Origin: Polyangiaceae bacterium
GTDB lineage: Bacteria > Myxococcota_A > Polyangia > Polyangiales > Polyangiaceae
DNA: 64,000 nucleotides
Direction: 5' to 3'
Assembly (NCBI GenBank): GCA_016712345.1
Contig: JADJRH010000002.1
Coordinates: forward strand, 8,466 to 72,465
Both the position numbers and the translations under genes were made by a program. The notes below the pieces were generated by a model, which worked only from the letters and a program-made list of their open reading frames with translations, ran no database searches and had not been told where the DNA came from. Below are positions 43,126 to 64,000 of the stretch, one piece after another (positions within the stretch are counted from its first letter, which is position 1; every line of letters begins with the position of its first letter).

Positions 43126-43204
43126 GCAATCTGCTGCGGGCACTTGAGCAAGTGCGCTTGCGCACGCCGCGATGGTGCCCGTCAGCAGCATTGCCGAGTT
43201 AGGC
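43126..43204 (-). other. attC site 32 (family H)
   Basis: GTTGAAC...GTTAGGC boxes. Family H arms. Confidence 0.6.
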
Positions 43205-44293: not shown

Positions 44294-44394
44294 GCCTAAC
44301 GTGGCAATCTGCTGCAAGCCCCAAAAGCAAGCAGAGCGGCCGAAGGACGCTCTGCGCAGCGTTGGGGTTTGCCAGCAGCATTGCCGAGTTAGGT
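44294..44394 (-). other. attC site 33 (family A)
   Basis: GCCTAAC...GTTAGGT boxes. Family A arms. Confidence 0.7.
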
Positions 44395-45450
44395 ACCTGA
44401 CTCCCAACAGAGTGTTTTCGAATTTGTAACGCCGCACGCCGCGTTTTGAAGGGAGTAGCCGATGCCCAATTGTGTACACGAGGCAAACCGACGAGCGCCG
44501 ACTCGGTGTATACACAATTTTGACTTCGCGCTGCCAGACCCACCGAGAACCTCCGCGCGAAACGAATACTACCCGTCTCAACCGGGCTGTCAACGCTTTC
44601 GAGCATGTCACCAGCGCCACCAAAATTGACGCCCACCTCAAGCAACGTTGTCCAAGATCGGGCAGACCAAACCGCGACGGCCCGCTCTGTCCACGAAAAC
44701 GCACGAAGGTGCCGAAATGTTGGCGAGATGAAAACCAACCTGCGCGAAACAGGAAACGCCTACAAGCGGGCAGTTTCGTTGATCTACCCATGCGCTCCCA
44801 ACTGCGCGGCCTTCGCTCCGAATGTGTACACGGAGTGTCGACGGACACGAGGCCTCTCAGGGGCGAACCCGAAGTACGAGGAAGCTCATCCGAAGGGGCA
44901 AATGAAGCGTTTTGAGCAACGCTCCGATTCAAAAAGAACAATGCCGCACCGAATATCAAGCGAAGCGCGACACTTGCGTACACGCACCGCGGCCACGCAT
45001 GACAGCGTGGTTATGTTGTTGCGCGAACGCCGCAAAAAGAAGCGAAGCGCGACAAATGTACCCATGAAAACCTACCCATGACCGACCGCGCGCGCGTGGG
45101 TACACACAAACTTTTCGGACGGAATGAGCGCCCATCAAAGCAAATTGGTTTTCAAATGAGTCATACCGCCCACGGACATGTCGCATCGAACCCAAATCCG
45201 TCAACTCCAAATCTACCCACGGTCGGACATGGTTAGATCATGAATTGATAATGGATTATGAAGATACCCCACCGGATGAACGACCGGTCGCCGCGGGCGT
45301 ATAATTTTTGAACTTACCCGCCCTCAACCCGACTGCCGGTGAAGAACGATTAGGATATGCAGAATCCCTCGCAAAAGAGCCTCCGCGCACCAACTGCCCA
45401 AGTGCGCTTTCCGAGAAAATTCAAGCGATTCTAGCCACGAAATTCTGTGT
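44395..45450 (-). repeat. ORF-less cassette payload, family N1
   Basis: Near-copy of 8031..9068. Confidence 0.6.
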
Positions 45451-45554
45451 ACCTAACGTGGGGTTGTGCTGCAAGCCCCGAGAGCAAGCAGAGGGGCGCG
45501 TCAGCGACGCTCTGCGCAGCGTCGGGGCTTGTCAGAACCAACCCCTGGTTGGAC
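45451..45554 (-). other. attC site 34 (family G)
   Basis: ACCTAAC...GTTGGAC boxes. Family G arms. Confidence 0.7.
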
Positions 45555-45884
45555 CTCTGGGGATTGCTACGACCCAGGTTTTGGAGCATCGTATTCTGAA
45601 TCCGAATCTGTAGTCAACTGTGAAAAAAAGTTACGTTCCATTCCGCACAGTTGAGTCGCCTTGCAGTCTAATTTTTCGATTCGCGTCCATTTTGCGCACC
45701 ACCGCAAATGGCTCCGATGGATACTGACGTTCTGACTTTTCCATTCGACTGTCAGGTCAGAAAGGCGGTGTACACAACCACGGAGTTGTGTCAACGAGTT
45801 TGTACAAAATAAAACGGAGCCGCCCGGTGCTGGAACACCGAACGGCCCCTTGACCTGCCCCCCGCTAGAACGGAGAGCAAGCCC
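45555..45884 (+). promoter_or_regulatory. Conserved sigma-cassette leader (paralog 5)
   Basis: Same conserved block. Confidence 0.4.
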
Positions 45885-46643
45885 ATGGAAAAGAATAGTC
45901 GTGATTTGTCCGCAGCTCGAATTTTCGGAGCCGCGAATGCTGTTGAGCCTGAAAATACCGATGAAATCAAGTGGCCGCCAAACGCACCAGACAAGTGGGT
46001 GAAGAGCGCGCCGGGTCGCCGCGGCAACCACCACCCATCGCTCTACTTACCCGAACCACAAGCCCGCGACCTGAATTCACTTCGCCCACTGATCGAAAGG
46101 ATCTTGCGCCGACACCGTGTAACGGCCCGTCACATTCCAGACCTGATTCAAGAGATCTTGGCGGAGTTAATTCGCGTCGCGAGAAGTCGCGGACACAGCA
46201 GTCAACCTCCCATCAACTCAACCGCGTACGGATTTGTCGCGGTGGTGGCCCGCCGAGTGGCACGAGACCGGTCGGTGCTCAAAGCCCTTGGTGAACAAGA
46301 AACACTCGGTGAATTGTGGGATCTGCTCGATTGTCAGGAATCTCCCCATTCGACTGCGACGAGTACAACTCCACTTGACTTGATGATCGAAAAAGAAGAA
46401 GAACAGAAGTTGACCGATCGACTCGACTGGTTGAGTCAGGCCACGAAGCCGAGATATTGGCGCGCTTTTTATGCATTCACCATTTTGGCCGTCCCGATCG
46501 AAGACATTGCCGAGAGTGAAAATATCAGTCCGGCCTCGACTTACGATCGCATTCGACGAGCACGCGACGACATCAAAGCCGCGCTCCAACGCGACCGGGC
46601 GAGCCGTGCACCAAAGATGGACCTGAAACCATCCCAAACCTGA
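45885..46643 (+). CDS. ECF-type sigma-70 factor (paralog 5)
   Basis: Paralog with the same region-2 and region-4 motifs. Confidence 0.7.
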   Translation: MEKNSRDLSAARIFGAANAVEPENTDEIKWPPNAPDKWVKSAPGRRGNHHPSLYLPEPQARDLNSLRPLIERILRRHRVTARHIPDLIQEILAELIRVARSRGHSSQPPINSTAYGFVAVVARRVARDRSVLKALGEQETLGELWDLLDCQESPHSTATSTTPLDLMIEKEEEQKLTDRLDWLSQATKPRYWRAFYAFTILAVPIEDIAESENISPASTYDRIRRARDDIKAALQRDRASRAPKMDLKPSQT

Positions 46644-46806
46644 CCTTCCATTTTCGTCCCGCCCGCGCTCGCTTTTCTCAACCCGCAAACGCATTGCACA
46701 AACCGATTTGATAGTCAAGTCGAGTGTACATTTGTGTGCGATTGACTTGCTGGGTCCGCACCAAATGTCAATGGGTTATACCATTTGGAAAGGCGCTATT
46801 TTGTAG

Positions 46807-46907
46807 GTCCAACGTGGTATTCTGCTGCGGGCAGGCGGCGCAAGCAGAGCGGACGAAGGACGCTCTGCGCAGCAAGCCTGACCGACAGCAGCAATACCTG
46901 GTTGGGT
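46807..46907 (-). other. attC site 35 (family B)
   Basis: GTCCAAC...GTTGGGT boxes. Family B arms. Confidence 0.7.
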
Positions 46908-46938
46908 GGGTTCTTCGAATGCATGTCCGTCGTCTATG

Positions 46939-48576
46939 TCACCAATCTGAGGGAAGCAAGCGCCGCAGTGTTTCGAAGTTCGCTTCTGCTATCAGGTCTC
47001 GACGATATTGTCCGTCTGGATCGATTCTTCGGAGGGCGGCAAGCCACGCGCGCACATCGTTTTCTTCCGCAGCGGTGAGGGGGGCGCGGTGCTTGTCTCT
47101 GAGACCGGACGCGACAGACGCATTGTAGTACGCAACGTGTCGTATCCGTGCCGTGATTAGAGGGTCCGAGTTCGCAGACTCGATCTGGATGGCCTGATTC
47201 GCGAAATCTATGGTGCTTGCTATATGGCGATCGGTCTCCGCCTCAGCGCCAAGCAGAAAAGATGTTTCCGCAAGAGTGACGGCGTTCCCCGTCCCTCGAT
47301 TGTACGCACGGAGGCGGAACTCATCTGATTGAGTGAGAAACTTGTCGGACATGACAATTCGCTCCAAGAGCAGACGGGCTTCCTCGGCCTTCTGGAGCGA
47401 CAGTGTGGGATTGCTTTGAACAAGGTGCGTAGCTTCCGCCCACTCGTTCTCGCAAGCCACGAGCGTGAGTTCGAGGTCCTCCTGCGGAAGGGCCGCGGCG
47501 CGTATGAACGCATTTTGGTGTGTGACCGTCGCCGGGTGTGGAACGGCATCTCCATAGTGCCGCGCCGAGTCGAGAAAGCGCTTGAGGAGGTTCTTCTTGT
47601 GAGGATCAATGAATGCGGGGGGAAGACCGCACTCGCACTTTAGGAACATTTCGCGCATCAGACCATCGAAGTTCTTGATAGTATAGAGGAATACCTTTTC
47701 CGGGTGTTCGCGCGCGAGATGGAGTACGGAGTCGGCGATATATGGAGCACCATCGGACTTGGACGCCGTCACACACCAGTGCAAGCCGAGACGAAGATAA
47801 TGGTCGCTGCGGAGCATCTCCCGGATCGGTCCGAGTATTGATGTGTCGCCGCCGGAATACCCCACAACGATGAGGCCCGCATCCGCGCATGCGCGAAAGA
47901 GGCGATCCTCCATCTCTCGATCGAGCCGTTTCAACTCGTCACGCAGATTGCGCAGGTTATCGTAGAGAAAATCTCCGTGCAATTTTAGGATCTTCGGACG
48001 GTCGCTGTCGAATCGAACGCTTGCGATCGCTGCGTCAAAGGACAGTTCGATTGCCTTGATGTCGTAAAAGCGAAACAGCGCCTCAGCGACGAGATCGTCG
48101 AAGTTGGTAGTCAGAATACGATTAAACCGCCCCGCCGCGATGAGGCCAGAAAGGTAGAGAAAGCCCCAGGAGGGGAACCCCTTTTTCATGAGGGACTCGA
48201 TGTGAATCTGGCGCGCCGATCGGTCCTGATGAAAATGCGAGAACAGCGTGGAGTACTCGGTCTCACCGAGTCGCCGGGCCTCGTTCAACCATGAGAGATA
48301 GCCGCTATCTGAGCGGCCTAGCCAAGCTTGGTACGCTTGCTCGTTTCGATCCGCGGACGTTTCCGAATGATGCTGTTCAAAGAGTTGATGTCTCCAATCG
48401 GCGATCATCTTGCCGGCGGTTGGGATTCCGGACGACGCCGACGCGCCGGCGCCCAGGAGAAGAGCATATGGGCGATCGTGGGCAGGAGGCTCGGCGACTT
48501 TTAGAGCGAGATTATATTCGTTATAGCGTGGCTTCAGGCATGCGGCCATAATTCGCTGACGCTCGTCTTTATCCAT
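46939..48576 (-). CDS. SIR2-like (DHS-like NAD-binding, SIR2_2-type) protein with C-terminal helical repeat region
   Basis: YALLLGAGASASSGIPTA...ILTTNFDDLVAEAL...KILKLHGD...VVGYSGGD, the pattern of SIR2_2 domains found in anti-phage proteins. About 545 aa. ATG at 48576. Confidence 0.7.
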   Translation of the reverse strand: MDKDERQRIMAACLKPRYNEYNLALKVAEPPAHDRPYALLLGAGASASSGIPTAGKMIADWRHQLFEQHHSETSADRNEQAYQAWLGRSDSGYLSWLNEARRLGETEYSTLFSHFHQDRSARQIHIESLMKKGFPSWGFLYLSGLIAAGRFNRILTTNFDDLVAEALFRFYDIKAIELSFDAAIASVRFDSDRPKILKLHGDFLYDNLRNLRDELKRLDREMEDRLFRACADAGLIVVGYSGGDTSILGPIREMLRSDHYLRLGLHWCVTASKSDGAPYIADSVLHLAREHPEKVFLYTIKNFDGLMREMFLKCECGLPPAFIDPHKKNLLKRFLDSARHYGDAVPHPATVTHQNAFIRAAALPQEDLELTLVACENEWAEATHLVQSNPTLSLQKAEEARLLLERIVMSDKFLTQSDEFRLRAYNRGTGNAVTLAETSFLLGAEAETDRHIASTIDFANQAIQIESANSDPLITARIRHVAYYNASVASGLRDKHRAPLTAAEENDVRAWLAALRRIDPDGQYRRDLIAEANFETLRRLLPSDW

Positions 48577-48620
48577 CGCCAAGTTCCTTCACCTTAGAGT
48601 TCCTTCCACGGGAAACGCGC

Positions 48621-48734
48621 TTCTCGCCCCACCCAACGTGGGGTTGTGCTGCAAGCCCCGAAAGCAAGCAGAGGGGCGCGTCAGCGACGCTCTGCGCAGC
48701 GTCGGGGCTTGTCAGAACCAACCCCTGGTTGGGC
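48621..48734 (-). other. attC site 36 (family G)
   Basis: ACCCAAC...GTTGGGC boxes. Family G arms. Confidence 0.7.
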
Positions 48735-49729
48735 ACCGTACGCTGGGTAGATTTCTCTCGAATTTGCACCATCGCACGGCTTGTTTTGAAGGGGAAATGC
48801 GCCCGCGATAAATGTACACAAGGCCGTCCAAATGAAGAACGCCGGGTGTGTACACTGGTCAAGTTTCGCGCCATAACCCACCAACCGCTGCGTACGCCTC
48901 GTAGACTACGCGGATCAAATTGACCGTCAAGCACAATCTGTGACCGCAAGAGTGATGCGCTCGGGGCTTGCACGCATGACGTCGACCTCACGAGAGGCCC
49001 GGTGTACACGACCGCCCGCGAATCGAAAAGAAAGCCGGAAGGCCGAGCCGCGGCCTACGCGCGGCTTGGCCCTTCGAGCGCGAACGCGAAGTATCGAAAG
49101 CAAAGGCGCCTCACCGTGAGGAACCGAAGTACAAGGCGGCTTATCCGAAGGTGCGAATGAAACGTTTCGAAAAACCGTGCTGCCGGCAGAAAAAAACATC
49201 ACCGCATCTGACACTCCGCGAAGCGCGATGTGTGTACACGCACCGCAGCTACCCATGCCGACGTGTTAGCGACTGAACGCGGATGCCGACAAAAACAAGC
49301 GAAGCGCGACAAGTGTACCCATGTGAAGGCCGTCCGAATTATTGTGTACACGTGGGTACATTCTACCTTTTCGAAAAGAAGCGAAGCGCGACTCGTGGGG
49401 AAACCGCTTCGACTTAGCAAAACCGCCACCGGAGCGAAGCGACCAAACCCCGTGAAAGATTAGGCCTCCATTCGATGGAAACCTCCACTCAACGGACTTC
49501 CACTCAACTTCACCGGCCCACCTGACATGTCATTCCGAACGGTGGAAAAAATCTCGCTCTCACACACGCTGCTTTCCAAATTCAGGGTAGCAACTGAAGG
49601 GTAAGATCCGATGAAGAGTGGTCGCATGTGCCTCAAAAAAAATAGACTCAACAACGCTCCATCACCCCAAGGACTGACACTGCCTTTCTGGGAAAAAAGA
49701 TGAGCGCCTCTACCCAGAAAATTCTGTGT
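48735..49729 (-). repeat. ORF-less cassette payload, N3/N4 hybrid
   Basis: 5' two-thirds resembles N3; 3' end resembles N4. No octamer array. Confidence 0.5.
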
Positions 49730-49818
49730 GCCCAACGTGGCAATCTGCTGCGGGCACTTGAGCAAGTGCGCTTGCGCACGCCGCGATGGTGCCCGTCAGC
49801 AGCATTGCCGAGTTAGGT
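49730..49818 (-). other. attC site 37 (family H)
   Basis: GCCCAAC...GTTAGGT boxes. Family H arms. Confidence 0.65.
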
Positions 49819-50907
49819 ACCTGACCCCCAGTAGAGCGCTTTCGAAATTGGAATTGCGCCGCTCGCGTTTGGTTGGGAATAAGCGTTTCCCAATTGTGTA
49901 CACGACGCAGGCCCAAGAGCGCTGGTGCGATGTGTACGCAAAATCGATTTCGCGCTGTCAAACCCACGAAAACCTCCGCGCAAAACGAATACTACCTGTA
50001 TCAACCGGCATGTCAACGCATTCGCGTGCGCCACGAGGACAGCCAAGGTCGATGCCCAACGCAGGCAATGCTGCCCCACGACGGCGAAGGCCAAACCGCG
50101 ACCACGCGGTCTGGCCCGTGACACAATAGGAGCGCTCCGAGTGACAGCGAGACGGTGAGGGCGTGGTGCGAATTTCAGGGAGCTGTTCGCCGAAGGCGGA
50201 CGGGAAACGCTTACACCTGAAAGGTCCGGCGATCTACCCATGCGCCACAAAAACGCGTGATCTGTCGCTTCGAATGTGTACACGGAGAGCCGACTGACGC
50301 GATGCCTCCCGGCGAAGAACCGAAATACAAGTTTGCTCATCCGAAGGTGCAACTGAAGGCGTTTCGAGGCCCACTTAGCTTGAAAAGAAACATACCAGCG
50401 CACCTGACCTCAAGCGAAGCGCCACAAAGTGTACACGCACCGCGGCTGCCAGTGTTAGGTGTCTGCGTTGTTACGAAAACGCTCCAAAAATAAGCGAAGC
50501 GCGACAAGTGTACCCATGAAAACCTACCCAATCTCGACTGCGCACACGTGGGTACACATGAACTTTTCGGAACGAAATGAAGCGCCATCCAACACAAGGC
50601 GGTTTTCAATTGAGTCATGCCGCCCCGAATGTGTCGCATCGAAACCAAATGGGGGTCGACTCCAAATCAACCCACTCTCACATGGTCCGATCACAAATAG
50701 ATGACGCCTTATGAACATACCCCACCGGATGAACCAGATGCGTGTTGCGGGGGAGAACGTTTTGGACGGAGGCATTTCGTCCCTCAACCCAGCCGCCGGT
50801 GAAGAAAGGTCAAGTGCGCACGATCCTTAGAAAAGCGCCTTTACCTGGGAAATACCTACGTCACCCACCGAGAAAATCCAGGCGAGTCTATCCACGAAAT
50901 TCCGTGT
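49819..50907 (-). repeat. ORF-less cassette payload, N1-like
   Basis: Diverged N1 relative. Confidence 0.5.
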
Positions 50908-51011
50908 ACCTAACGTGGCAATCTGCTGCAAGCCCCAAAAGCAAGCAGAGGGGCGCGCCAGCGACCCTCTGCGCAGCGCTGGGGTTTGCCAGCAGCATTG
51001 CCGAGTTAGAC
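50908..51011 (-). other. attC site 38 (family A variant)
   Basis: ACCTAAC...GTTAGAC boxes. Family A arms around the central GAGGGGCGCGCCAGCGACCCTCTG. Confidence 0.65.
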
Positions 51012-51339
51012 CTCTGGGGATTGCACCGACCCATGTTTGGAGCATCGTATTCCGAATCTGAATCTGTAGTCAACTGTGAAAAAAAGTTACGTTCCATTCC
51101 GCGCAGTTGAGTCGCCTTGCAGTCTAATTTTTCGATTCGCGTCCATTTTGCGCGCCACCGCGAATGGCCTTGATGGACACTGACTTTCGATCTTGCACTC
51201 GACTGTCAGGTCAGAAAGGCGGTGTACACAACCGCGGCGTTGTGTCAATCACTTTGTACAAAATAAAACGGAGCCGCCCGGTGTTGGTCGCACCGAACGG
51301 CCCCTTGACCTGCCCCCCGCGTTAACGGAGAGCAAGCCC
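51012..51339 (+). promoter_or_regulatory. Conserved sigma-cassette leader (paralog 6)
   Basis: Same conserved block. Confidence 0.4.
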
Positions 51340-52098
51340 ATGGAAAAGAATAGTCGTGATTTGTCCGCAGCTCGAATTTTCGGAGCTGCGAATGCTGTTG
51401 AGCCTGAAAGTACCGATGAAATCAAGTGGCCGCCAAACGCGCCGGACAAGTGGGTGAAGACCGCGCCCGGTCGCCGCGGTACGCACTACCCATCGCTCTA
51501 CTTACCCGAACCACAAGCGCGCGACTTGAATTCACTTCGCCCGGTTATCGAAAGGATCTTGCGCCGACACCGTGTAACTCCCCGCCACATTCCTGACCTG
51601 ATTCAAGAGATCTTGGCAGAGTTAATTCGGGTTGCGAGAAGCCGCGGACACAACAGTCAACCTCCCATCAACTCAACTGCGTACGGATTTGTTGCGGTGG
51701 TAGCCCGTCGGGTAGCGCGAAACCGGTCGGTGCTTAAAGCCCTCGGCGAACGGGAAGACCTCGGTGAATTGTGGGATCTACTCGATTGTGAGGAGTCTCC
51801 CCATTCAACTACAACGAGCACCACTCCACTCGACTTGATAATCGAAAAGGAAGAAGAACAGAACTTGACCGATCGACTCGACTGGTTGAGTCAGGCCACG
51901 AAGTCGAGATATTGGCGCGCTTTTTACGCCTTCACGATATTAGCCACGCCGATTGAAGACATTGCCGAGAGTGAGAATATCAGTCCGGCCTCTACTTACG
52001 ATCGCATTCGACGAGCCCGCGAAGACATCAAAGCCGCGCTCCAACGCGATCGGGCGAGCCGCGTACCAAAGATGGACCTGAAACCATCCCAAACCTGA
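51340..52098 (+). CDS. ECF-type sigma-70 factor (paralog 6)
   Basis: Starts at the conserved MEKNS methionine (ATG at 51340) inside track ORF 51193..52098. Confidence 0.7.
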   Translation: MEKNSRDLSAARIFGAANAVEPESTDEIKWPPNAPDKWVKTAPGRRGTHYPSLYLPEPQARDLNSLRPVIERILRRHRVTPRHIPDLIQEILAELIRVARSRGHNSQPPINSTAYGFVAVVARRVARNRSVLKALGEREDLGELWDLLDCEESPHSTTTSTTPLDLIIEKEEEQNLTDRLDWLSQATKSRYWRAFYAFTILATPIEDIAESENISPASTYDRIRRAREDIKAALQRDRASRVPKMDLKPSQT

Positions 52099-52263
52099 CC
52101 TACCCAATTCTGGCCCGCCGCCCTGCCTTTCCCGGGGCCGATAAAAATAGCCATTTCATTCAATCTGATAGTCAAGTCGGATTGTCAATTTTCCCGATTG
52201 GGTGATTGGGAATGCCGCAAATCCGAATGGGCTATACCATTTTTGAAAGTGGCTGCGTTGCAG

Positions 52264-52367
52264 GTCTAACGTGCTGATGTGCTGCAAGCCCCGAAAGCAA
52301 GCAGAGGGGCGCGTCAGCGACGCTCTGCGCAGCGCCGGGGTTTGCCAGCACCATTAGCGTGTTGGGT
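52264..52367 (-). other. attC site 39 (family G variant)
   Basis: GTCTAAC...GTTGGGT boxes. Arms GCTGATGTGCTGCAAGCCCC / GGGGTTTGCCAGCACCATTAGC. Confidence 0.6.
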
Positions 52368-52482
52368 GGTGCGTTTTTCCGTGCACTCAATTGTGCGGCG
52401 AACGAAATTCCAACTCGCGATCGAGTAGTCAAGACGGGAGACTTTTGATACATGACTCCTGAGCGCCGCTCATCAAGTTGAA

Positions 52483-53238
52483 TCATTCGTCCCCCTCAGT
52501 AAGCGACTGATGCTTCCCTTTTTTGACTCGTTTAGTGCGGATCTCCCCGCCCCCTTCAAGAACTTCCCGTAGGGTAGGTCGTGAACGTTCGAGGCTTAAC
52601 GCGTATTTTGGCGTGCCACGAATCCTTTCGAAACCGAGGCGACTCCAAAGTGTACGCAACTTTTGGAGCGCGAGTTTCTGATCGGCCACGAAATCGCCGG
52701 CTCGCATCAAGGAGCACCAATTCGAGTGGTCAGCGCCTGTGTCCTTGAATTGCATCGGAAACGGCTCACAAACAGCAAGTCCACAGCCGCCGCTGAATTG
52801 TTCCAAGAAGTGCCAGACAGTGGCCAGACCAACATTCTGACCTCGGTGCGATGGTAAAATTTCTACTGTATCGGCAACGAGGACGTTGAGCGAAAACGGA
52901 GTATCAAATTGTCGTTCAAGGGACTTCTTGAGTGCCTGCTGGCGAAAGTCAAATAAGACGTTGGCATAATCGTACAAGGTTTGACTGTGTTCATCGCAGA
53001 CGTCGAGGAGATCCATGTTGTCCTCCCATGCGCGATCGACCCGTATGATGTGACCGATGAGCGTGCCGACTCGTTCGAGAGTGTCGCTGCCGTCATCCTC
53101 GGTGCACGTGATCTCCCCAAAGATATCTGAAATGTATTGTTGGCCAACCTCCGAAAAAAGGTCGGAACCAAGTCGAAAATCAACTCGATAGCTCCGGTCT
53201 GACTCCAACCCTGCATCATCGCTTTCCACGCGGCTCAT
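52483..53238 (-). CDS. Hypothetical protein (251 aa), weak GNAT-like motif
   Basis: Clean ORF with an ATG start. HRGQNVGLATVWHF resembles GNAT motif A; otherwise unassigned. Confidence 0.4.
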   Translation of the reverse strand: MSRVESDDAGLESDRSYRVDFRLGSDLFSEVGQQYISDIFGEITCTEDDGSDTLERVGTLIGHIIRVDRAWEDNMDLLDVCDEHSQTLYDYANVLFDFRQQALKKSLERQFDTPFSLNVLVADTVEILPSHRGQNVGLATVWHFLEQFSGGCGLAVCEPFPMQFKDTGADHSNWCSLMRAGDFVADQKLALQKLRTLWSRLGFERIRGTPKYALSLERSRPTLREVLEGGGEIRTKRVKKGKHQSLTEGDE

Positions 53239-53411
53239 GGCTCTCCATCACAACGTGCACGACGACATTCGAGGTGTACTGCCCAGCAGAGTACCCCACA
53301 TTCTGAATCAGACCGACGCTTCTGGTTACTCCCTTTTTGACCACACCCGCCATCTCCTATTCCAACCTTAGACGGTCAGTCGACAACCCCCGGAAAGAAC
53401 GTGCTTTGCCC

Positions 53412-53515
53412 ACCCAACGTGGGGTTGTGCTGCAAGCCCCGTGAGCAAGCAGAGGGGCGCGTCAGCGACGCTCTGCGCAGCGCCGGGGCTTGTCAGAACC
53501 AACCCCTGGTTGGGC
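53412..53515 (-). other. attC site 40 (family G)
   Basis: ACCCAAC...GTTGGGC boxes. Family G arms. Confidence 0.7.
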
Positions 53516-54558
53516 ACCATGCTCTGGGTAGACTGCTCACGCATTTTCACCACCTCCCGCCTTGTTTTGACGGGGAAATGCGCCTGCGATAAATGTACAC
53601 AAGGCCGTCCAAATGAAGAACGCCGGGTGTGTACACTGGTCAAGTTTCGCGCCATAACCCACCAACCGCTGCGTACGCCTCGTAGACTACGCGGATCAAA
53701 TTGACCGTCAAGCACAATCTGTGACCGCAAGAGTGATGTGCTCGGGGCTTCCACGCATGACGTCGACCTCAGGAGAGCCCCGGTGTACACACGACCGCGC
53801 GCGAATCGAAAAGAAAGCAGGAAGGCCGAGCCGCGGCCTACGCGCGGCTTGGCCCTTCGAGCGCGAACGCGAAGTATCGAATGCAAAGACGCCTCGCCGT
53901 GAGGAACCGAAATACAAGGTGGTTTATCCGAAGGTGCGAATCAAGCGCTTCGAAAAACCGCACGGCTTGCGGAAAAAACATCACCGCATCTGACACTCCG
54001 CGAAGCGCGATATGTGTACACGCACCGAAGTTACCCATGCCGACGTGTTGGCGACCGCACGCGGATGCCGACAAAAACAAGCGAAGCGCGACAAGTGTAC
54101 CCATGTGAAGGCCGTCCGAATTATTGTGTACACGTGGGTACATTCTACCTTTTCGAAAAGAAGCGAAGCGCGACTCGTGGGGCAACCGTTTCGACTCAAC
54201 AATACCGCTGCTGGAGCGAAGCGACCAAACCCCGTGACGGACTGCGCCTCCATTGAAATTGGACCCCTCCACTCAACAGTCAACCAGTCAACCAGTCAAC
54301 CAGTCAACCAGTCAACCAGTCAACCAGTCAACCAGTCAACCTTACCGCCCCACGCGATATGTTATTTCCGAGGGTAGAAACATCTCTCTCGCAGACACGC
54401 TCATTGTCAAATTCAGAATCGCAACTGAAGGGTAAGATAGCAGGTAAAGCTTGATCAAATGTGCCTTCAAAATAGACTCAACAACGCTTCCTCAAGCCAA
54501 GGCCTGACACTGCCTTTCTGGGAAAAAAGATGAGCGCCTCTACCCAGAAATTCTGTGT
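53516..54558 (-). repeat. ORF-less cassette payload, family N3
   Basis: Collinear with 21284..22299. Octamer array present. Confidence 0.6.
54279..54341. repeat. Tandem octamer array (GTCAACCA)x8
   Basis: Same array in an N3 cassette. Confidence 0.8.
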
Positions 54559-54659
54559 GCCCAACGTGGTATTCTGCTGCGGGCAGGCGGCGCAAGCAGG
54601 GCCGACGAAGGAGGCCCTGCGCAGCAAGCCTGCCCGTCAGCAGCAATACCGAGTTATAC
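54559..54659 (-). other. attC site 41 (family B variant)
   Basis: GCCCAAC box at the 5' end, degenerate GTTATAC box at the 3' end. Arms GGTATTCTGCTGCGGGCAGG / CCTGCCCGTCAGCAGCAATACC. Confidence 0.6.
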
Positions 54660-54706
54660 GCCGACATCTTGAAATTCCCATTGCCACAGCGAAAGCCGAG
54701 GGACAC

Positions 54707-55096
54707 TCACCAGATGGTAGCAAGCCCAGGACAATCCAAGATTAGATGATCCGAAGTTACGACCGGAATGCCTTCGAGAATCGCTGTTGCCACGATGATG
54801 CGATCAGCGGGATCATTGTGAGTGAGAGGCACCTCACAAGAGTACACCGCGATCGTTGAAGAAACCGGAATTTCGAGCAAACTAAAGGCGCTAACAGCGT
54901 GCATGAACCAGTCGCGGACCGGCCGCGTCAGCGCGAGTTTTCCTTTTCTGACCTTCACGGCAATTTCGAACGCGCTGATTGCAGAGACAAGAAGCTGCGT
55001 ATCCTTCTTGGACAGTGCATCGAGAGCCGCATCGGAGAGCTGTTCTCGATCATCCGCGAGCCAAAGAAGGGCACAAGTGTCGAGTAATAGCCTCAC
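54707..55096 (-). CDS. vapC: PIN-domain toxin VapC
   Basis: RLLLDTCALLW...SAFEIAVK...IPVVTSD gives the PIN acidic residue pattern. GTG start. Overlaps the upstream antitoxin by 4 nt. Confidence 0.8.
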   Translation of the reverse strand: MRLLLDTCALLWLADDREQLSDAALDALSKKDTQLLVSAISAFEIAVKVRKGKLALTRPVRDWFMHAVSAFSLLEIPVSSTIAVYSCEVPLTHNDPADRIIVATAILEGIPVVTSDHLILDCPGLATIW

Positions 55097-55383
55097 GGCC
55101 GAAACTCCGCTGGCCAGTCATTCTCGTCCAATGGAGCATTAGGATTTTCATGAAAAAGAACTGGCCCGAGAGTCAAATCTCTTGGAAATCGCTGGGCGAG
55201 AGCTTGCAAAAGGGCGCTTCGCTTGTGCGTGGGAGGTTCGCGCGTTTCGGACCTCGTTGGGATTGCAGCTGCCGCTTCGGATAGAATGATAACTTCAGCA
55301 TTACCCGCAGGAAAATCTGACGGCAATCGTACAACGACGTCGGCACTTGGCTCCGCCATGATCTTGATTTTGTGAGCGTACAT
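55093..55383 (-). CDS. vapB: Putative VapB-type antitoxin
   Basis: 96 aa, start overlapping vapC. Contains MAEPSADVVVRLPSDF, an antitoxin-like N-terminus. An alternative start lies at 55359. Confidence 0.5.
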   Translation of the reverse strand: MYAHKIKIMAEPSADVVVRLPSDFPAGNAEVIILSEAAAAIPTRSETREPPTHKRSALLQALAQRFPRDLTLGPVLFHENPNAPLDENDWPAEFRP

Positions 55384-55861
55384 TTGGGCGACCGCTCCTT
55401 AGCTGATAATAGTACGAGTTCAGTCTGCGGTATGTCAAGGAATGGTTGGTTGTCGGCGGGCTGCACAACGTGGCTCGCCACTCTGACCCCGCGGCTCGCT
55501 GTGGTGAGGCAATTTTTGGGGGCTGCGACGCGCGTTGGAGCAAAAGCAGCCGAATCATCGAGCTGCGCGCAGCTCGCGAGCCGTTCAACTACCCGCATGA
55601 TTTTTCTACCGTCTTGCGCGCTCCCTTTCGCTTACCCATGCGTGTAGTGCAGTGCAGCGAGGTGGGGACACGTACTGCTGGCGGCCTTGGCGACATGGAC
55701 TCGACGTTGGGAGGGTGTATAAATTCTTCGTGTCGTTTTCCGCGTTCATACCCTTGATGGGATCTCTGTGCCACGCGGAGCAAGAAAAAAGCAGTTTGTT
55801 GGGTTGATAATCCTTACCGCAACATTCGCCTTACCGCATTCTGGCGCGCTCTACTCAGTGC

Positions 55862-55962
55862 GTATAACGTGGCAATCTGCTGCAAGCCCCAAAAGCAAGC
55901 AGAGCGGCCGAAGGACGCTCTGCGCAGCGCTGGGGTTTGCCAGCAGCATTGCCGAGTTAGGT
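55862..55962 (-). other. attC site 42 (family A)
   Basis: GTATAAC...GTTAGGT boxes. Family A arms. Confidence 0.7.
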
Positions 55963-57048
55963 ACCTGACTCCCAGCAGAGTGTTTTCGAATTTGCAACGC
56001 CGCACGCCGCGTTTTGAAGGGAGGAGCCGATTCCCAATTGTGTACACGAGGCAAACCCACGAACGCCGATTCGGTGTGTACGCAAATCAGATTTCGCGTC
56101 GCCAAACCCACCGAAGACCTCCGCGCGAAACGAATACTACCTGTCTCAACCGGCCTGTCAACGCTTTCCCGCACGTCGCGAAAAGCCCAAGTCGACGCTC
56201 ATCGGAGGCAACATGGCACACGACGCGAAGGCCAGATCGTGACAACGCGGTTTGGCCCTTGAGACAAATCGGAGCGCGCCGAAATGTTGGCGAGATGGCA
56301 CCAGCCTCCGCGAAGTACAACTTGCATTTCGCCGAAGGCGTATTGGAAACGCCAGAAAACCAGGCCGTTTCGTTGATCTACCCATGCGCTCCCACCTGCG
56401 CGGCCTTCGCCCCGAATGTGTACACTAAGTGTCGTTTGACATGAGGCATCTCAGGGACGAATCCGAAATACAAGTTGGCTTATCCGAGGGCGCAAATGAG
56501 GCGTTTTGAGAAACGCTCCGATTCAAAAAGAACAACGCCGCACCGAGCCTCATGCGAAGCGCGATATTTGTGTACACGCACCGCGGCTGCGCGTGCCGGC
56601 GTGTTTGCGTTGTTACACGAACGCCTTGAGAAGAAGCGAAGCGCGACAAGTGTACCCATGAAAACCTACCCATGGTCGACTGCGCACGCGTGGGTACACA
56701 CAAGCTTTTCGAACGAAATGAGCGCCGGTCAAAGCAAAGCGGTTTTTCAAAGGAGTCACACCGCCCACGGATGTGTCGCATCGAAACCGAACGGCCAAGT
56801 CCAAATCTACCCACGCTTAGCCATGGTCAGATCGTGAATTGATAACGGATTGCGAAGATAACCCCACCAGATGAGCGATCGGTCGTCGCGGGAGTAGAAT
56901 TTCGCACGTACCCACCTCGCTCCTCAATGCGACTGCCGGGGTGAATAGTCAGAATATGCAAAGTACCCCCCAAAAAGCCTCTACTCACCAACTGCCCAAG
57001 TCCACATTCTGACAAAATTCAAGCGATTCTACTCACGAAATTCTGTGT
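55963..57048 (-). repeat. ORF-less cassette payload, family N1
   Basis: Collinear with 39102..40182. Confidence 0.6.
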
Positions 57049-57149
57049 ACCTAACGTGGTATTCTGCTGCGGGCAGGCGGCGCAAGCAGGGCGGACGAAG
57101 GACGCCCTGCGCAGCAAGCCTGGCCGACAGCAGCAATACCTGGTTGGGC
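57049..57149 (-). other. attC site 43 (family B)
   Basis: ACCTAAC...GTTGGGC boxes. Family B arms. Confidence 0.7.
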
Positions 57150-58311
57150 CCCGACTTTGATGTAACTTGGCATTCGAGTTGTAATGTCGCCGGCCGTTCT
57201 CCCTGAAAGATCGCCGACCTGACAGAACGACTTCGTGCGACAAAACTTGGCATACGTGCTGGGCTGCGTGTGTACACATTTGCGCTCGACAAATCCACAT
57301 CGCGCGCCGCGTTTCCCGCCGAGTTGCCTGTCACACCACGAATACTACCTGTACGCGAGGTGCCGTCAAGTGCGATTTTCGGGCGCTTATCACCCCACGA
57401 ACGCACCGCAACGGAGTGTACCTTTTCGCCCGAGGCTCCCAAGATGGGTAGAAGGCTGCGCTGCGTCCTCCGCGTGTACAAGGAGTATCGATTGTGGTTG
57501 TGCTCGCCGGGAGGAACCGAAACACAAGGCTGCTGATCCGAAGGCGCACATCAAGCGTTTCAAACCCCACGCGGTTTGTAAAAAACAGAAAATCGTAATC
57601 CAAAAGAAGCGAAGCGCGATATGTGTACAAGCATCGAAGCTACCCATGCCGACGTGTTGGCGACTGAACAGCGATGCCAAGAAAAACAAGCGAAGCGCGA
57701 CAAGTGTACCCATGTCAAGGCTACCGGAACTCGTGTGTACACATGGGTACATGCTACCTTTTGAAAAGATGCGAAGCGCGACTCGTGGAGAAACCGTCGC
57801 GGCTTTGCAACACCGCAGTTGGAGCGAAGCGACGAAGGGCTGATCACATAAGTCTGATTCGACTCAACTTCACTGGTCTACCTGACTTAATGTGACCTGA
57901 CCCTCTCCTTCACAACCGTAACAAATTGCTTTTCAATCTCGGGATTCCGGCAAAGGGTAGGGTGCCGTAACAAATTCACCGAATACGGAACGGAAAATAG
58001 ACTCAACAAGGTTTTCTACCCAACACCGCTGTTGGCGCGAGGTGACGAAACCAATGAACCAATGGATCTCCCTTCAATGGATCTCCACTCAACTTCACCG
58101 CGCCACCTGACATGCTATTCAGATCGGTAGAAAAACCCGCCTCAGAAACATGCTTCTTGCCAGATTCAAGTCCCAACCGAAGCGTAAGATTCCGGCAGCA
58201 AATGCACCAGATGTGGCGCGAAAATCAGGCTCAACAACGCTTCCTCACCCCAAGGACTGACGGCGCCTTCTGAGAAAAAACATGAGCGCCTCTACCCAGA
58301 AAATTCTGTGG
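57150..58311 (-). repeat. ORF-less cassette payload, family N4
   Basis: Three tandem N4 cassettes lie nearest attI. Shares the N core. Confidence 0.6.
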
Positions 58312-58412
58312 GCCCAACGTGGTATTCTGCTGCGGGCAGGCGGCGCAAGCAGGGCGGACGAAGGACGCCCTGCGCAGCAAGCCTGACCGACAGCAGCAAT
58401 ACCTGGTTGGGC
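58312..58412 (-). other. attC site 44 (family B)
   Basis: GCCCAAC...GTTGGGC boxes. Family B arms. Confidence 0.7.
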
Positions 58413-59591
58413 CCCGACTTTGATGTAACTTGGCATTCGAGTTGTAATGTCGCCGGCCGTTCTCCCTGAAAGATCGCCGACCTGACAGAACGACTTCGTG
58501 CGACAAAACGCGGCATACGCACTGGGCTGCGCGTGTACACATTTGCGCCCGACAAATCCACATCGCGCGCCGCGTTTCCCGCCGAGTTGCCTGTCACGCC
58601 ACGAATACTACCTGTACAAGAGGTGCCGTCAAGTGCGATTTTCGGACGCTCATCGCCCCACGAACGCACCGCGACGGAGTGCACCTTTTCGCCGGAAGCT
58701 CCTACGATGGGTAAAAGGCTGCGCCGTGGCCTCCGCATGTACAAGGAGTATCGATTGTGGTTGTGCTCGCCGCGAGGAACCGAAATACAAGGCTGCTCAT
58801 CCGAAGGCGCACATCAAGCGTTTCAAACCCGGCGCGCTTTGTAAAAAACAGAAAATCGTAATCCAAAAGAAGCGAAGCGCGATATGTGTACACGCACCGA
58901 AGCTACCCATGCCGACGTGTTGGCGACTGAACGGGGATGCCGAGAAAAACAAGCGAAGCGCGACAAGTGTACCCATGTCAAGGCTACCGAAACCCGTGCG
59001 TACACATGGGTACATTCTGCCTTTTGAAAAGATGCGAAGCGCGACTCGTGGAGAAACCGTCGCGGCTTTGCAACACCGCAGTTGGAGCGAAGCGACGAAA
59101 GGGCTGAGCAGATAAGTTTGATTCGACTCAACTCAACTCAACTCAAACTTCACTGCTCAACCTGACTTAATCTGACCTGACCCTCTCCTTCACAACGGCG
59201 ACAAATTGCTTTTCAATCTCAGGATTCCGGCAAAGGGTAGGGTGCCGTAACAAGTTCACCAAATACGGCCGGAAAAATAGGCTCAACAAGGCTCTCTACC
59301 CAACACCGCTGTTGGCGCGAAGCGACGAAACCAATGAACCAATGGATCTCCATTCAACGGATCTCCACTCAACTTCACCGCGCCACCTGACATGCCATTC
59401 AGATCGGTAGAAAAATCCGCCCCACAAACATGGTTCTTGCCAAATTCAAGATCACGATCGAAGCGTAAGATTTCGGCAGCAAATTCACCAGATGTGGCGC
59501 GAAAATCAGGCTCAACAACGCTTCCTCAGCCCAAAGACTGACGGGGCCTTCTGGGAAAAATATGAACGCCTCTACCCAGAAAATTCTGTGG
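58413..59591 (-). repeat. ORF-less cassette payload, family N4
   Basis: Collinear with 57150..58311. Confidence 0.6.
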
Positions 59592-59692
59592 GCCCAACGT
59601 TGCGGTGTGCTGCGGCCGGGCGGCGCAAGCAGGGCGGACGAAGGACGCCCTGCGCAGCAAGCCTGGCCGTCAGTACCAGCGCATGGTTGGGC
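59592..59692 (-). other. attC site 45 (family C)
   Basis: GCCCAAC...GTTGGGC boxes. Family C arms. Confidence 0.7.
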
Positions 59693-60791
59693 ACCTTGTG
59701 CTGGATGGGTTGTTTTCGAATTTGCAACGCCGTATCCCACGTTTTGAAGGGATGACGCGATCGCGACAAATGTACACAAGGCCATCTCGATGGCGACGAT
59801 TGAATGTGTACACTTTTGAGCATTGCCGCTATCAACCCCACCGTGTCCTCCGCACAATCCGTAGACTATCTGTATCAAAATGGCAGTCAAGCACAATTTG
59901 CCCTGCGAGAGTGATGCACTCGGGGTGCGCATCCACAACGCCGACGTCTCAAAATGTCGTGCGTACACTCGACCCACTCCGACACCGAAAATAAATTCAT
60001 CAGGCCGAGCCGCGGCCTACGCGCGGCTTGGCCCTTCGAGTGCGCACGAGGAGTATCGAAGGGAGTGAGTTCTCGACGCGCGGGAGCAAAATACAAGTTT
60101 GCTCACCCGAAGGCGCAAAATAAAGCGTTTCGTGAACCCGTGCGGCAAGAAAAAATACACCACCGGATCTGACATCCAGCGAAGCGCGATATTGCGTACA
60201 CGCTCCGCGGCTGCGCACGCCAGCGTGTTTCCGTTGTGTCGCGACGCTGCAAAAACAAGCGAAGCGCGACAAGTGTACCCATAAAGACCTGGCCAATGCC
60301 ATTTCGTACACGTGGGTACACATGAACCTCTCGGGGAGAAATGGACCGCTGACCGATGAAACAAAGCTGATAGTTGAACAACCGCGCCCCCGAACAGAGG
60401 CACAGAAATCAGTCGAATCTCCACCTTCGAATCTACCCACTTCACCAACCAACTTGAACGCAAATTGAAGGTGAAGTGATGCAGCAGCTCCGACACAATT
60501 CTGGGTCGCTTCTTTTGTACAATATGACCGCGGATCTACCCATTCAATCGATCGACGTTACACCAGTTGAGAAGAGGTAGATGCGAGGGAAAGTCCTTAA
60601 AAAAGCGCCTTTACCCAAGCGCAATCCGCGTCAGTCTCTTTGTAAAAACGAACCTACTCACTTTGCCACTCGACCAAGCCGCGGGTGAGGAACAGTAAGG
60701 TGCGCACCACCTTGGAAAAGCGCCTCGAACGGTCAACTACCCATACCGCTTTCTGAAAAAACTAAAACGACTCTACCCACAAAATTCTGTG
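59693..60791 (-). repeat. ORF-less cassette payload, family N2
   Basis: Collinear with 20081..21179. Confidence 0.6.
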
Positions 60792-60893
60792 TGCCCAACG
60801 TGGTATTCTGCTGCGGGCAGGCGGCGCAAGCAGGGCGGACGAAGGACGCCCTGCGCAGCAAGCCTGGCCGACAGCAGCAATACCTGGTTGGGC
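60792..60893 (-). other. attC site 46 (family B); belongs to first (attI-proximal) cassette
   Basis: GCCCAAC...GTTGGGC boxes. Family B arms. Confidence 0.7.
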
Positions 60894-62055
60894 CCCGACT
60901 TTGATGTAACTTGGCATTCGAGTTGTAATGTCGCCGGCCGTTCTCCCTGAAAGATCGCCGACCTGACAGAACGACTTCGTGCGACAAAACGCGGCATACG
61001 CACTGGGCTGCGCGTGTACACATTTGCGCCCGACAAATCCACATCGCGCGCCACGTTTCCCGCCGAGTTGCCTGTCACGCCACGAATACTACCTGTACAA
61101 GAGGTGCCGTCAAGTGCGATTCTCGGGCGCTCATCGCCCCACGAACGCACCGCAACGGAGTGTACCTTTTCGCCGGAAGCTCCCAAGATGGGTAGAAGGC
61201 TGCGCCGTAGCCTCCGCATGTACAAGGAGTATCGAGGGTGGTTGTGCTCGCCGGGAGGAACCGAAATACAAAGCTGCTCATCCGAAGGCGCACATCAAGC
61301 GTTTCAAACCCCGCGCGGTTTGTAAAAAACAGAAAATCGGAATCCAAAAGAAGCGAAGCGCGATATGTGTACACGCACCGAAGCTACTCATGCCGACGTG
61401 TTTGCGACTGAACGGCGATGCCGAGAAAAACAAGCGAAGCGCGACAAGTGTACCCATGTCAAGGCTACCGAAACTCGTGCGTACACATGGGTACATTCTG
61501 CCTTTTGAAAAGAAGCGAAGCGCGACTCGTGGAGAAACTGTCTCGACTTGGCAACGCCGCTGTTGGAGCGAAGCGACGAAAGGCCGAGCAGATAAGTTTG
61601 ATTCGACTCAACTTCACTGCTCTACCTGACTTAATCTGACCTGACCTCTCCTTCACAACGGTAACAAATTGCTTTTCAATCTCAGGATTCCGGCGAAGGG
61701 TAGGGTGCCGTGACAAATTCACCAAATACGGCACGAAAAAATAGACTCAACAAGGTTTTCTACCCAACACCGCTGTTGGCGCGAGGCGACGAAACCAATG
61801 AACCAATGGATCTCCATTCAACGGATCTCCACTCAACTTCACCGCGCCACCTGACATGCCATTCAGATCGGTAGAAAAAATCCGCCTCACAAACATGCTT
61901 CTTGCCAAATTCAGGATCCCAACCGAAGCGTAAGATTCCGGCAGCAAATTCACCAGATGTATCTGAAAATCAGGCTCAACAACGCTTCCCCACCCCAGAG
62001 ACTGAGGGCGCCTTCTGGGAAAAAACATGAGCGCCTCTACCCAGAAAATTCTGTG
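60894..62055 (-). repeat. ORF-less cassette payload, family N4 (first cassette next to attI)
   Basis: Collinear with 57150..58311. Ends at the GCCCAA|C boundary adjoining the putative attI. Confidence 0.6.
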
Positions 62056-62130
62056 GGCCCAACGTGTAATGGGCAGTTCCGCGGGGCGGGGCGAGACTGG
62101 AGGAACGCCAATGATGGACTGCGGAAAGTG
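62056..62130 (-). other. Candidate attI site (junction of first cassette with the intI-proximal region)
   Basis: The array ends at GCCCAA|C (about 62056-62062). Next comes GTGTAATGGGC; on the top strand this reads GCCCATTACAC-GTTGGGC, which resembles the attI1 simple site GCCCTAAAACAAAGTTAGGC. Base composition changes abruptly just beyond this point. Confidence 0.5.
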
Positions 62131-62627
62131 CCCATGAGGTACGGTGGCATACGATGGTGGGGAGGGCAAGGGAGTTGAGAAAGTCGCTGTAAGGATTGTT
62201 GGTTTTGGAGAGGCTCAAAGATTGCTACGTGGTGAAGAAATATGGAGATGGACTGTTTCTGTGGGGCAAGCTGTGATGCGCGGGAGTGACGCGCGTCGGC
62301 GGGGCGGGGCGACGATCGGGCTGAGTGCGAGCGCGCGCACCGATCAACAAGGGACGGGTTGCCTGCTGGGGTGGAAATGGACAGCGCTTTTGGGGGACAC
62401 CGAGCGGCGGGTGCGGGCATGGGTAGGGAAGTTGGGGCTTTGGGGCGGCGACTTGAGGCGTGGGGGATGCAGGTTGACCGCAGTGAACCTGACGGATGAG
62501 CGTGCGGGGGTGAAGTCAGGGGCAGGGTGGCGATGGGGTGGATAGATGGGGCTGGACAGGCACTCAACGCGGGGAAGTGGTGGAGGTATCGGGATGGTAG
62601 AGTTGACGGTTCGGGAGGGTTGGAAGG

Positions 62628-63641
62628 TCAGGGAAACGTGGTCAATTGCGGTATGGGGGTAGGGATATCGAGGGGGCTTTTGACGGCGAGGGGGCCGCTG
62701 TTGAGGACGTGGGTATAGATCATGGTGGTGGAGACGTCGCGGTGTCCGAGGAGTTCTTGGATGGTGCGGATGTCGTAGCCGGCTTCGAGGAGGTGGGTAG
62801 CAAAGGAGTGGCGGAGGGTATGGCAGCCGGTGCGTTTGTGAATGCCGGCGAGGTGTGCGGCATGGGAGACGGCGCGTTGGAGTACGGTTTCGTGGAGGTG
62901 GTGGCGGCGCCATTGTTGGGTAGGTTCGTGGTAGTAGTGGCGGGTTGCAGGGAAGACCCAATGCCAGGACCAGGAGTGTGGGGCGCTGGGTATTTTCGCG
63001 GCGATGTTGTTGGGGACTTCCACGCAGGCGTGGCCCTGTTCGCGGTCATATTCGAATTGGGCGTGGGTTTCTTTGAGGTGGTGGCGAAGGCGTTCGACGA
63101 GGCGGGCGGGGATCATGGTTTTACGGTCTTTGTTGCCTTTGCCGGAGTGAATGTGGAGTTCGCGTTTTTCAAGGTCGAGGTCTTTGACGCGGAGGGTGCA
63201 GCATTCCATGAGGCGGAGTCCGGCGCCGTAAATGAGGGCGGCCATGAGTTGAGTGGTGCCTGTCAGTTCTTGGAGGAGGGCGGCGACTTCGCGTTGTGTG
63301 AGGACGACGGGGAGTTTGAGGGGTCGTTTGGCGCGGGCGAAGGGGCCGAGTTTGTCGAGGGGTATGCGGAGGACGTGGAGGTAGAGGAAAAGGAGGGCGG
63401 AGAGGGCTTGGTTTTGGCTGGAAGCGCTGACGTTTTTGTCGCGGGCGAGGAAGGTTAGAAATTTTTCGATATGGGTAGATCCGAGTTGATGGATGGGTCT
63501 GTTGTGGTAGTGGAGGTAGCGAAGGGTCCACAAGACGTAGGATTCTTCGGTGCGGCGGCTGTAATGGAGTCTTCGCACGGCATCGCGAAGCGTGCCGAGG
63601 AGGTTTCCATAGACGGGCGGGGGTATGGGTTGAAGGTCCAT
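62628..63641 (-). CDS. intI: Integron integrase IntI (tyrosine recombinase with IntI-specific extra domain)
   Basis: 337 aa. Close collinear similarity to IntI1, including [71 protein letters not shown], and the IntI-specific insertion. ATG at 63641. Confidence 0.95.
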
Positions 63642-64000
63642 GTTTGGGGGGTTGCATTGGGTGGGCCGTGAGGATTTGGGGGAATTCAGGGCTGCTGGGT
63701 GGTCGGTGGGGTGTCGGCCGTCGGCAGTGGAGCGTCGGTCGACATTTACAAAAAGCTGCTTTCTAGCAAATTCACCTAGGCCCTGGAGTTGAGTTTCCTG
63801 TAGTCTTGCGGTTGGCCTGCGGTTGGCGGCCGCCGTCCGGGGTAAGATTCAGAGGGCCCATGATCCAGCAAAAAAGAAGCGTGGGTGTACACCGGTTGAG
63901 GGGGGCTTTCCCGGCCCGAAAGGTGGGGTGGAGCACGGCGTTTGCCGGTGCGACGTTTGTTCTAACTGCGCTGGAGAGCGGTGTGGCGTTGGGGGACGAC

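Follow-up and report, generated by a model that had tools for sequence, protein, structure and literature searches.

The stretch of DNA analyzed here (the window) spans 64,000 nt of a Polyangiaceae bacterium genome assembled from a metagenome (GCA_016712345.1, contig JADJRH010000002.1, positions 8,466-72,465 of the forward strand), and very probably carries a complete integron, chromosomal and sedentary, that belongs to the inverted integron-integrase type. As predicted from sequence comparison, the integrase gene intI (62628..63641, minus strand) would be followed by its attI recombination site and then by at least 47 gene cassettes on the same strand, in an array that occupies 1..62062 and exits the left end of the window. 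The hallmark of the inverted group is evident: intI lies on the strand that serves as the top strand of the attC sites, with its 3' end toward attI. An initial annotation had proposed this co-orientation, and four independent lines of evidence now agree on it: the bulged bases of the attC hairpins, the strand of the cassette genes, the half-site at the first-cassette junction, and the geometry of related loci.

An intact integrase gene adjoins the array

The gene at 62628..63641 encodes an intact integron integrase of 337 amino acids. Its product scores 395.7 bits against the NCBIfam model TIGR02249, "integron integrase" (curated cutoff 265), contains the Pfam domains Phage_int_SAM_4 and Phage_integrase, and aligns through residues 15-324 with the Vibrio cholerae integrase VchIntIA (PDB 2A3V) at 268 bits. 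The insertion specific to IntI proteins—the additional domain around patch III—aligns gap-free with VchIntIA across residues 205-260, including the sequence WHWVFP. The motifs GLRLMEC, GKGNKDR, LGH, and IYTHV are conserved between the two proteins, and we take them to supply the catalytic R-K-H-R-H-Y residues. An NCBI entry named "integron integrase [Polyangiaceae bacterium]", located on a 738-kb contig, is 100% identical to the window IntI. This chromosomal-scale context, together with at least 47 similar attCs and the placement of related integrons among housekeeping genes (see below), is what characterizes a sedentary chromosomal integron, for which an array counts as large above about 20 cassettes.

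Bulged bases define the strand of the attC array

A crude search of the window for RYYYAAC…GTTRRRY hairpins found 17 sites. An alignment of 12 of these exhibits compensatory changes in 18 of 33 predicted pairs, and, as single-stranded DNA, the attCs fold well beyond shuffled sequences (z = -6.9 to -8.0). A covariance model built from the same 12 sites identified 47 attCs in the window, all scoring far better on the plus strand than on the minus; 34 of them score 93-113 bits on this single model. AAC and GTT are invariant in the resulting alignment, and in 47/47 attCs the 3' arm on the plus strand carries a bulged C plus a second bulged base (T in 27, C in 12, A in 6, and G in 2), each facing a gap in the 5' arm. 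A model-free hairpin detector likewise placed the extra bases in the 3' arm for 28/28 window attCs, and returned no hits from shuffled window sequence. The earlier statement that extrahelical bases occupy the 3' arm of every attC on the plus strand is thus borne out by both approaches.

In well-studied integrons, the recombining bottom strand is the one with extrahelical bases in the 3' (R''/L'') arm and cleavage at AA|C in the 5' arm, as seen for VchIntIA with VCR and for attC-aadA7. By this rule, the 3'-arm bulges make plus the bottom strand of the array and minus its top strand. The cassette open reading frames with Pfam matches, namely TIR_2, PAAR_motif, and SIR2_2, are all on the minus strand.

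All 47 attCs (for example, 60793-60893) have C as the bulged base at a distance of 9 nt from the 3' GTT of the bottom strand. A bulged C also occurs in several inverted-type loci from our survey of related integrons (L004, L007, L010, L025, L027, L040, L083, and L085), and the attCs of Coriobacteriia (L046, L052) and of a classical Methylobacter locus (L078) have G at that position. Three attCs are unusually long (167 nt; 1471-1637, 9069-9235, and 11630-11796); they were recovered only by the default-filter search and divide apparent 2.5-kb cassettes. A GC-rich hairpin of 96 nt, GGTGTCCG…CGGACACC, is present in three copies with identical termini and flanks (858-953, 26425-26520, and 37160-37255). 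These copies have no AAC/GTT boxes, lie within cassettes, match the attC model weakly (E ~0.06), and are not attCs.

The first-cassette junction contains a candidate attI

The first cassette (60799..62062, minus strand; 1264 nt), delimited by its boundaries and by clustering, belongs to a three-copy family poor in open reading frames, and its attC (60793-60893) scores 110 bits and folds as DNA at -43.1 kcal/mol (z = -6.9). Three other cassettes, which start at the attCs at 275, 58312, and 59592, have 5' ends almost identical to the 60 nt left of 62063. Homology of the first cassette to its three paralogues stops at AAC|G, with unrelated sequence beyond, so the half-site found at this point is not a chance match. 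Recombination of attI x attC would be expected to leave such a junction if the cassettes lie to the left, and could not yield it if the array read the other way.

Immediately next to this boundary, and directly downstream of intI as proposed at the outset, is the attI core candidate at 62057..62074 (minus strand), delimited by the limit of first-cassette homology and by a core type retained in relatives. The plus strand of 62057-62074 reads GCCCAACGTGTAATGGGC; its reverse complement, GCCCATTACACGTTGGGC, exactly matches the top-strand junction ending in GTTGGGC that was quoted in the initial annotation. On the top strand, it is composed of an L box, GCCCAT (plus-strand positions 62069-62074), a TACAC spacer (62064-62068), and an R box, G|TTGGGC (62057-62063). 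The crossover falls between plus-strand positions 62063 and 62062, 565 nt past the intI stop at 62628, in keeping with the 570 bp or so estimated at the outset.

In relatives with downstream arrays, the GTTRRRY that comes first after intI is built like the window site. For instance, the cores read GTCTAA-TTGGC-GTTAGGC in L020, GTCTAA-TTTAC-GTTGGAC in L082, and GTCGAA-TGATC-GTTAGGC in L083, where the core boundary was set independently by a repeated cassette. Position four of the L box and position three of the R box form a pair, T:A in most relatives and C:G in the window, which constitutes a compensatory change. Among 167 related loci, the motif G[CT]CNA[AT]-N5-GTTRGRY occurs 17 times on the intI strand within 0-700 nt downstream of intI, a total of 95.6 kb, 12 of these occurrences being at loci not used in defining the motif. 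Elsewhere it occurs twice in 1.31 Mb on the intI strand and six times in 1.41 Mb on the other strand. This ~60-fold enrichment downstream of intI supports 62057-62074 as the attI site, for which the case is good, if purely comparative. A shared attI core, GYCNAW-N5-G|TTRGRY, 120-500 nt downstream of intI, could aid annotation of attI sites and first cassettes, both usually ignored by integron surveys.

An R-box-like ATGGGC on the top strand (62130..62135, minus strand), read from the sequence 72 nt upstream of the crossover, is a possible accessory IntI-binding site. Relatives have TTAGGC-like boxes 26-76 nt upstream of their cores; the ATGGGC of the window is not significant alone, and the small hairpin that it makes with the L box is no more stable than chance (z = -1.8). 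The attI1 site of class 1 integrons has accessory sites, to which this box may be a parallel.

Between intI and attI lies a non-coding spacer (62075..62627, minus strand). The attC covariance model has no match between 62063 and intI, and the long open reading frames of the spacer are the chance yield of C-rich sequence, one of them spanning the cassette boundary. A degenerate attC or other hairpin at the junction (62050-62160) was also considered and set aside (z = -1.8 versus shuffles, no model match). A 17-nt direct repeat, TC(C/G)GCGGGGCGGGGCGA, is present at 62078-62094 and 62296-62312 (16/17 identical), the first copy abutting the attI L box; in such a G-rich stretch it may be due to chance.

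Co-oriented integrases recur among related integrons

To place the window among its relatives, we rely on a sample of 167 related IntI loci, each oriented with intI on the plus strand. Scans of genomes and metagenomes with the IntI protein yielded identities of at most 58% among the matches listed, and relatives at 59-66% were retrieved individually. The relatives with an array at 59-63% identity are Minicystis rosea CP016211 (L081), CAXXYL010000008 (L082), a Minicystis sp. (L083), and L085. In all four, attCs are found only downstream of intI, co-oriented with it and on the strand opposite to that of the model, and no significant attC match occurs upstream of intI. The 5' side of intI in L081-L083 is occupied by housekeeping genes (Lon, formyltransferase, EF-P).

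The same sample provides a check of the bulge rule itself. A model-free search oriented 81 hairpins across the 167 loci: 63 had the bottom strand on minus and were downstream of intI, 13 had it on plus and were upstream, and five were discordant, four of these from one locus. The rule thus predicts the side of the array for 76/81 hairpins, and is valid for the window.

By locus, the model-free survey counted 27 inverted, 9 classical, and 3 mixed arrangements, from the 39 of 167 loci with any detectable array. The inverted arrangement was recorded in Acidobacteriota, Gemmatimonadota, Eisenbacteria, Elusimicrobiota, Coriobacteriia, and Myxococcota, and the classical one in Methylobacter, beta-proteobacteria, Desulfobacterota, Anaerolineae, and Planctomycetota, with covariance-model searches adding the classical loci L018 (Verrucomicrobia) and L044 (a gamma-proteobacterium). 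With VchIntIA as the root, a neighbour-joining tree places the window IntI in a Polyangiaceae subclade within a mostly inverted clade, and groups seven of the nine classical loci together nearer the root. The check suggested in the initial annotation, whether the protein groups with inverted lineages, therefore has a positive answer, and the nearest genomes are inverted as well. L063, from a Blastocatellia metagenome-assembled genome (CAVTUR010000008), has attC-like hairpins of a single orientation both upstream (four) and downstream (two) of intI, as if intI were situated inside a co-oriented array.

The geometry had initially been described as uncommon, a description that these counts do not sustain for this branch of the IntI family. 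Cury et al. described the "inverted integron-integrase group" and found it paraphyletic (PMC4889954), Wu et al. reported that Treponema intI is transcribed toward attI (PMC3607928), and a recent soil study treats both orientations as the two known integron structures (10.1101/2025.02.12.637893). With a geometry that is already named and recurrent in its relatives, the window integron belongs to a known type. Our survey suggests that the co-oriented layout is the majority among environmental relatives (Acidobacteriota, Gemmatimonadota, Eisenbacteria, Myxococcota, and Coriobacteriia), of which the window offers a well-delimited and very large Myxococcota example, with at least 47 cassettes.

Alternative explanations

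One alternative is that the array is a group of clustered attC sites with no integrase nearby (CALIN), abutting an integron whose real attI and cassettes lie 5' of intI, beyond position 64000. Only 359 nt upstream of intI are within the window, and L063 illustrates that attCs can be found on both sides of intI. Countering this, a half-site terminates the array precisely at the R' crossover and is followed by the core type of 17 relatives, and a plausible ordinary open reading frame opens at 63861 on the plus strand. The housekeeping genes 5' of intI in L081-L083, and the four nearest array-bearing relatives with no significant upstream attC match, point the same way. The operational rule for a CALIN is that no integrase lies within about 4 kb, and here 565 nt separate the first cassette boundary from an intact intI; we consider this explanation very improbable. 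Slightly less credible still is the notion that intI was inverted locally and recently, or that the contig is misassembled at repeats, in which case co-orientation would not be a stable trait. In favour of this, the genome is metagenome-assembled and the array highly repetitive, with 30 of 44 delimited cassettes in multi-copy families, and one class 1 integron with an inverted intI has been described by Cury et al. (PMC4889954). Yet the nearest relatives, whose assemblies are complete or long, show this geometry too, and the conserved core lies downstream of intI in many lineages. Moreover, a block of skewed strand composition, described below, runs unbroken from upstream of intI to ~70 nt from the junction, which argues against a join inside it.

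The least likely of the three is that the orientation is wrong: were plus the top strand, the array would run toward intI and stop beside it, and a truncated attC, not attI, would occupy 62057-62074. Two features lend themselves to this idea. The bulged base is C on the plus strand and G on the minus, G being the usual bottom-strand base, and the ~45 conserved nucleotides to the left of attC on the plus strand of about 20 cassettes could be read as an extended attC 3' end. This latter stretch is, however, confined to particular cassette families and lacking from other cassettes, while the 3'-arm bulges fit the plus strand as bottom strand in 47/47 attCs by a rule that was right for 76/81 oriented hairpins across the 167 loci. 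Cassette genes with family matches are on the minus strand, and truncation at R'' is no recombination product, whereas divergence at G|TT of R' is the expected attI x attC junction.

Several points weigh against an inverted integron with attI at 62057-62074, and temper our confidence. The covariance model is biased toward attCs like those of its source array, because it was built from this array. The bulged base in the window attCs is C instead of G, the usual bulged base in the bottom strands of well-studied (class 1 and Vibrio) attCs. Some of the loci in which the attI core motif was counted had also served to define it, and the 565-nt spacer between intI and attI exceeds those of relatives (~70-500 nt). 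The neighbour-joining tree carries no support values and includes no Treponema reference. A scan of 61500-64000 for sigma-70 consensus promoters, to which non-consensus promoters are invisible, found none. With the window ending at 64000, a second, divergent attI and array upstream of intI, the refuting condition set in the initial annotation, keeps a small probability in this genome; none of the relatives has one. Finally, attI function and IntI activity are predictions only.

A working model for cassette insertion and expression

If the inverted arrangement is right, intI would be transcribed on the minus strand toward the array, and the primary attI would lie 565 nt beyond its stop codon. 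If IntI acts as its homologues VchIntIA and IntI1 do, it would bind the folded bottom (plus) strand of the attC hairpins, where the two bulged bases of the 3' arm would impose the choice of strand. Cleavage is predicted at AA|C in the attC 5' arm, with the hairpin recombining with double-stranded attI at G|TT. In essence, new cassettes would enter at 62062|62063, next to attI, in the sense orientation.

A scan of 61500-64000 for intrinsic terminators found none. With neither a terminator nor a consensus promoter between intI and attI, cassette transcription would most likely depend on read-through from intI, on an unrecognised promoter in the spacer, or both. In class 1 integrons, the intI and cassette promoters overlap and are arranged face to face, an arrangement that co-orientation removes. 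The intI promoter itself is presumably just beyond a G-poor leader (63642..63760, minus strand) that we delimit by a strand skew lasting to ~63750 and then falling. A Myxococcus-type LexA box, allowing up to two mismatches, has no match anywhere in the window, nor did a scan against Rfam find any family within it.

Comparison with known integrons

The integrons of Treponema denticola and other Treponema spp. provide one point of reference, as they too have long sedentary arrays that include cassettes devoid of open reading frames (PMC3607928, PMC4889954, PMC8876359). In T. brennaborense, an R box, there GTTAGGT, is similarly located between intI and the first attC (PMC3607928). The host phylum differs, Myxococcota being the host here.

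The Vibrio cholerae superintegron resembles the window in being a large sedentary chromosomal array with homogeneous attCs and an integrase that aligns over its full length. The attC layout is common to both: an R box, an unpaired spacer, and an L box with a bulged base. They differ in geometry, classical and divergent in V. cholerae and co-oriented in the window, and in their bulges. The bulged bases of V. cholerae attCs are T and G, unlike the invariant C and variable second base of the window attCs.

A resemblance to the attI1 simple site had been noted initially, and holds for architecture only. Both sites have an imperfect inverted L/R repeat around G|TT, with possible extra R-like boxes upstream, but there is no sequence similarity beyond GTTRRRY. 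Their settings are also distinct: attI1 lies upstream of a divergent intI1, with the promoter Pc inside intI1, whereas the window attI would come 565 nt after the intI stop, and the promoter scan identified no Pc.

Strand composition of the integron platform

The segment that comprises the leader, intI, and the spacer to attI (62080-63750) is of extreme strand composition, its sense strand being poor in G and, less so, in T. GC skew on the plus strand is +0.3 to +0.6 from ~62080, just inside the attI junction, to ~63750, and the cumulative G-C minimum is at 61996. On the sense strand, third codon positions of intI are 66% C, 19% A, 9% T, and 6% G, compared with 45-52% G at third positions of intI in L081-L083. 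First and second codon positions and the amino acids encoded are shifted alike, with Gly, Val, Ala, and Arg less frequent, and His, Thr, Lys, and Tyr more so. The interval between the intI stop and the crossover (62064-62627) is 46% C and 16% G on its top strand, and the cassettes adjoining the platform have no such strand bias. The extent of the block would agree with that expected of an intI transcription unit.

Only one other such locus was found among the 167: L062, from an Anaerolineaceae metagenome-assembled genome (CAZAWS010000167), whose integrase is 49.5% identical to that of the window and has 6% G and 2% T at third codon positions. Its depleted block (within 1-1500) consists of the leader, intI, and ~400 nt downstream, and then stops. 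In L062, a direct repeat of 13/14 nt (ATCTGTGGATAAT / ATCTTGTGGATAAT) has one copy immediately upstream of the intI leader and the other immediately past intI; an attC search of this short contig detected none.

We entertain, as a tentative and rather unlikely proposition, that G depletion arose independently in L062 and is a feature of the integron platform, not of host codon usage. Whichever strand their genes lie on, Polyangiaceae relatives favour C over G at third positions. Codon usage of the host is thus partly plausible as a complete explanation, but leaves the non-coding spacer, the leader, and L062 unaccounted for. A C-rich, G-poor spacer is not a general trait of inverted integrons, as the window has a counterpart in L011 alone, and the bias is reversed in L081 and L083. 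G-quadruplex motifs do not explain the G-rich plus strand either, with only one motif in the skewed block. Possible causes include a Rho-loading, unstructured C-rich RNA that would insulate the cassettes from intI read-through; selection for a platform without self-complementarity, unable to form pseudo-attC hairpins; or a mutational footprint (deamination of the plus strand) left by strong antisense transcription from the first cassettes.

Cassette content

Among the minus-strand cassettes with recognizable products are those encoding a TIR_2 protein (5313-6437; Pfam, with weak ThsB-like matches), a PAAR-motif protein (33463-34044; Pfam), and a SIR2_2 protein (46939-48582; Pfam), all of defence or toxin type. 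The SIR2_2 protein also scores 210 bits on the SIR2-PNTD model associated with prokaryotic Argonautes (pAgo), and no Argonaute is encoded in the same cassette. Chromosomal integrons have recently been viewed as defence-gene banks (bioRxiv 10.1101/2024.07.02.601686), a view with which the TIR, SIR2/pAgo-associated, and PAAR cassettes agree.

The array is redundant: the 30 of 44 delimited cassettes mentioned above fall into eight multi-copy families, of 8, 6, 4, 3, 3, 2, 2, and 2 copies. The family of the first cassette (57055-58317, 58318-59597, and 60799-62062) consists of ~1.2-kb units poor in open reading frames, with internal AAGCGAAGCGCGA repeats. A conserved 45-nt 5' start (top strand GTTRGGYACACAGAATTTYGTGGGTAGA…) is common to ~20 cassettes; this stretch, which lies beside many attCs, was rejected as a general attC extension, being restricted to some cassette families.

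A six-copy cassette segment, 94-99% identical, contains an ATG-started open reading frame of 252 amino acids on the plus strand, antisense to the array (9566-10324, 12126-12884, 19057-19815, and 45885-46643, with related frames at 14616-15473 and 51193-52098). It has no Pfam or PADLOC match, and could be either a cassette gene in reverse orientation or a chance open reading frame. Lastly, the palindrome GGTGTACACC, allowing up to one mismatch, occurs nine times versus 1.1 expected, at 63884-63893 and at eight cassette sites. The copy at 63884-63893, the sole perfect one, lies ~245 nt upstream of the intI start, inside the possible divergent open reading frame that opens at 63861 on the plus strand.

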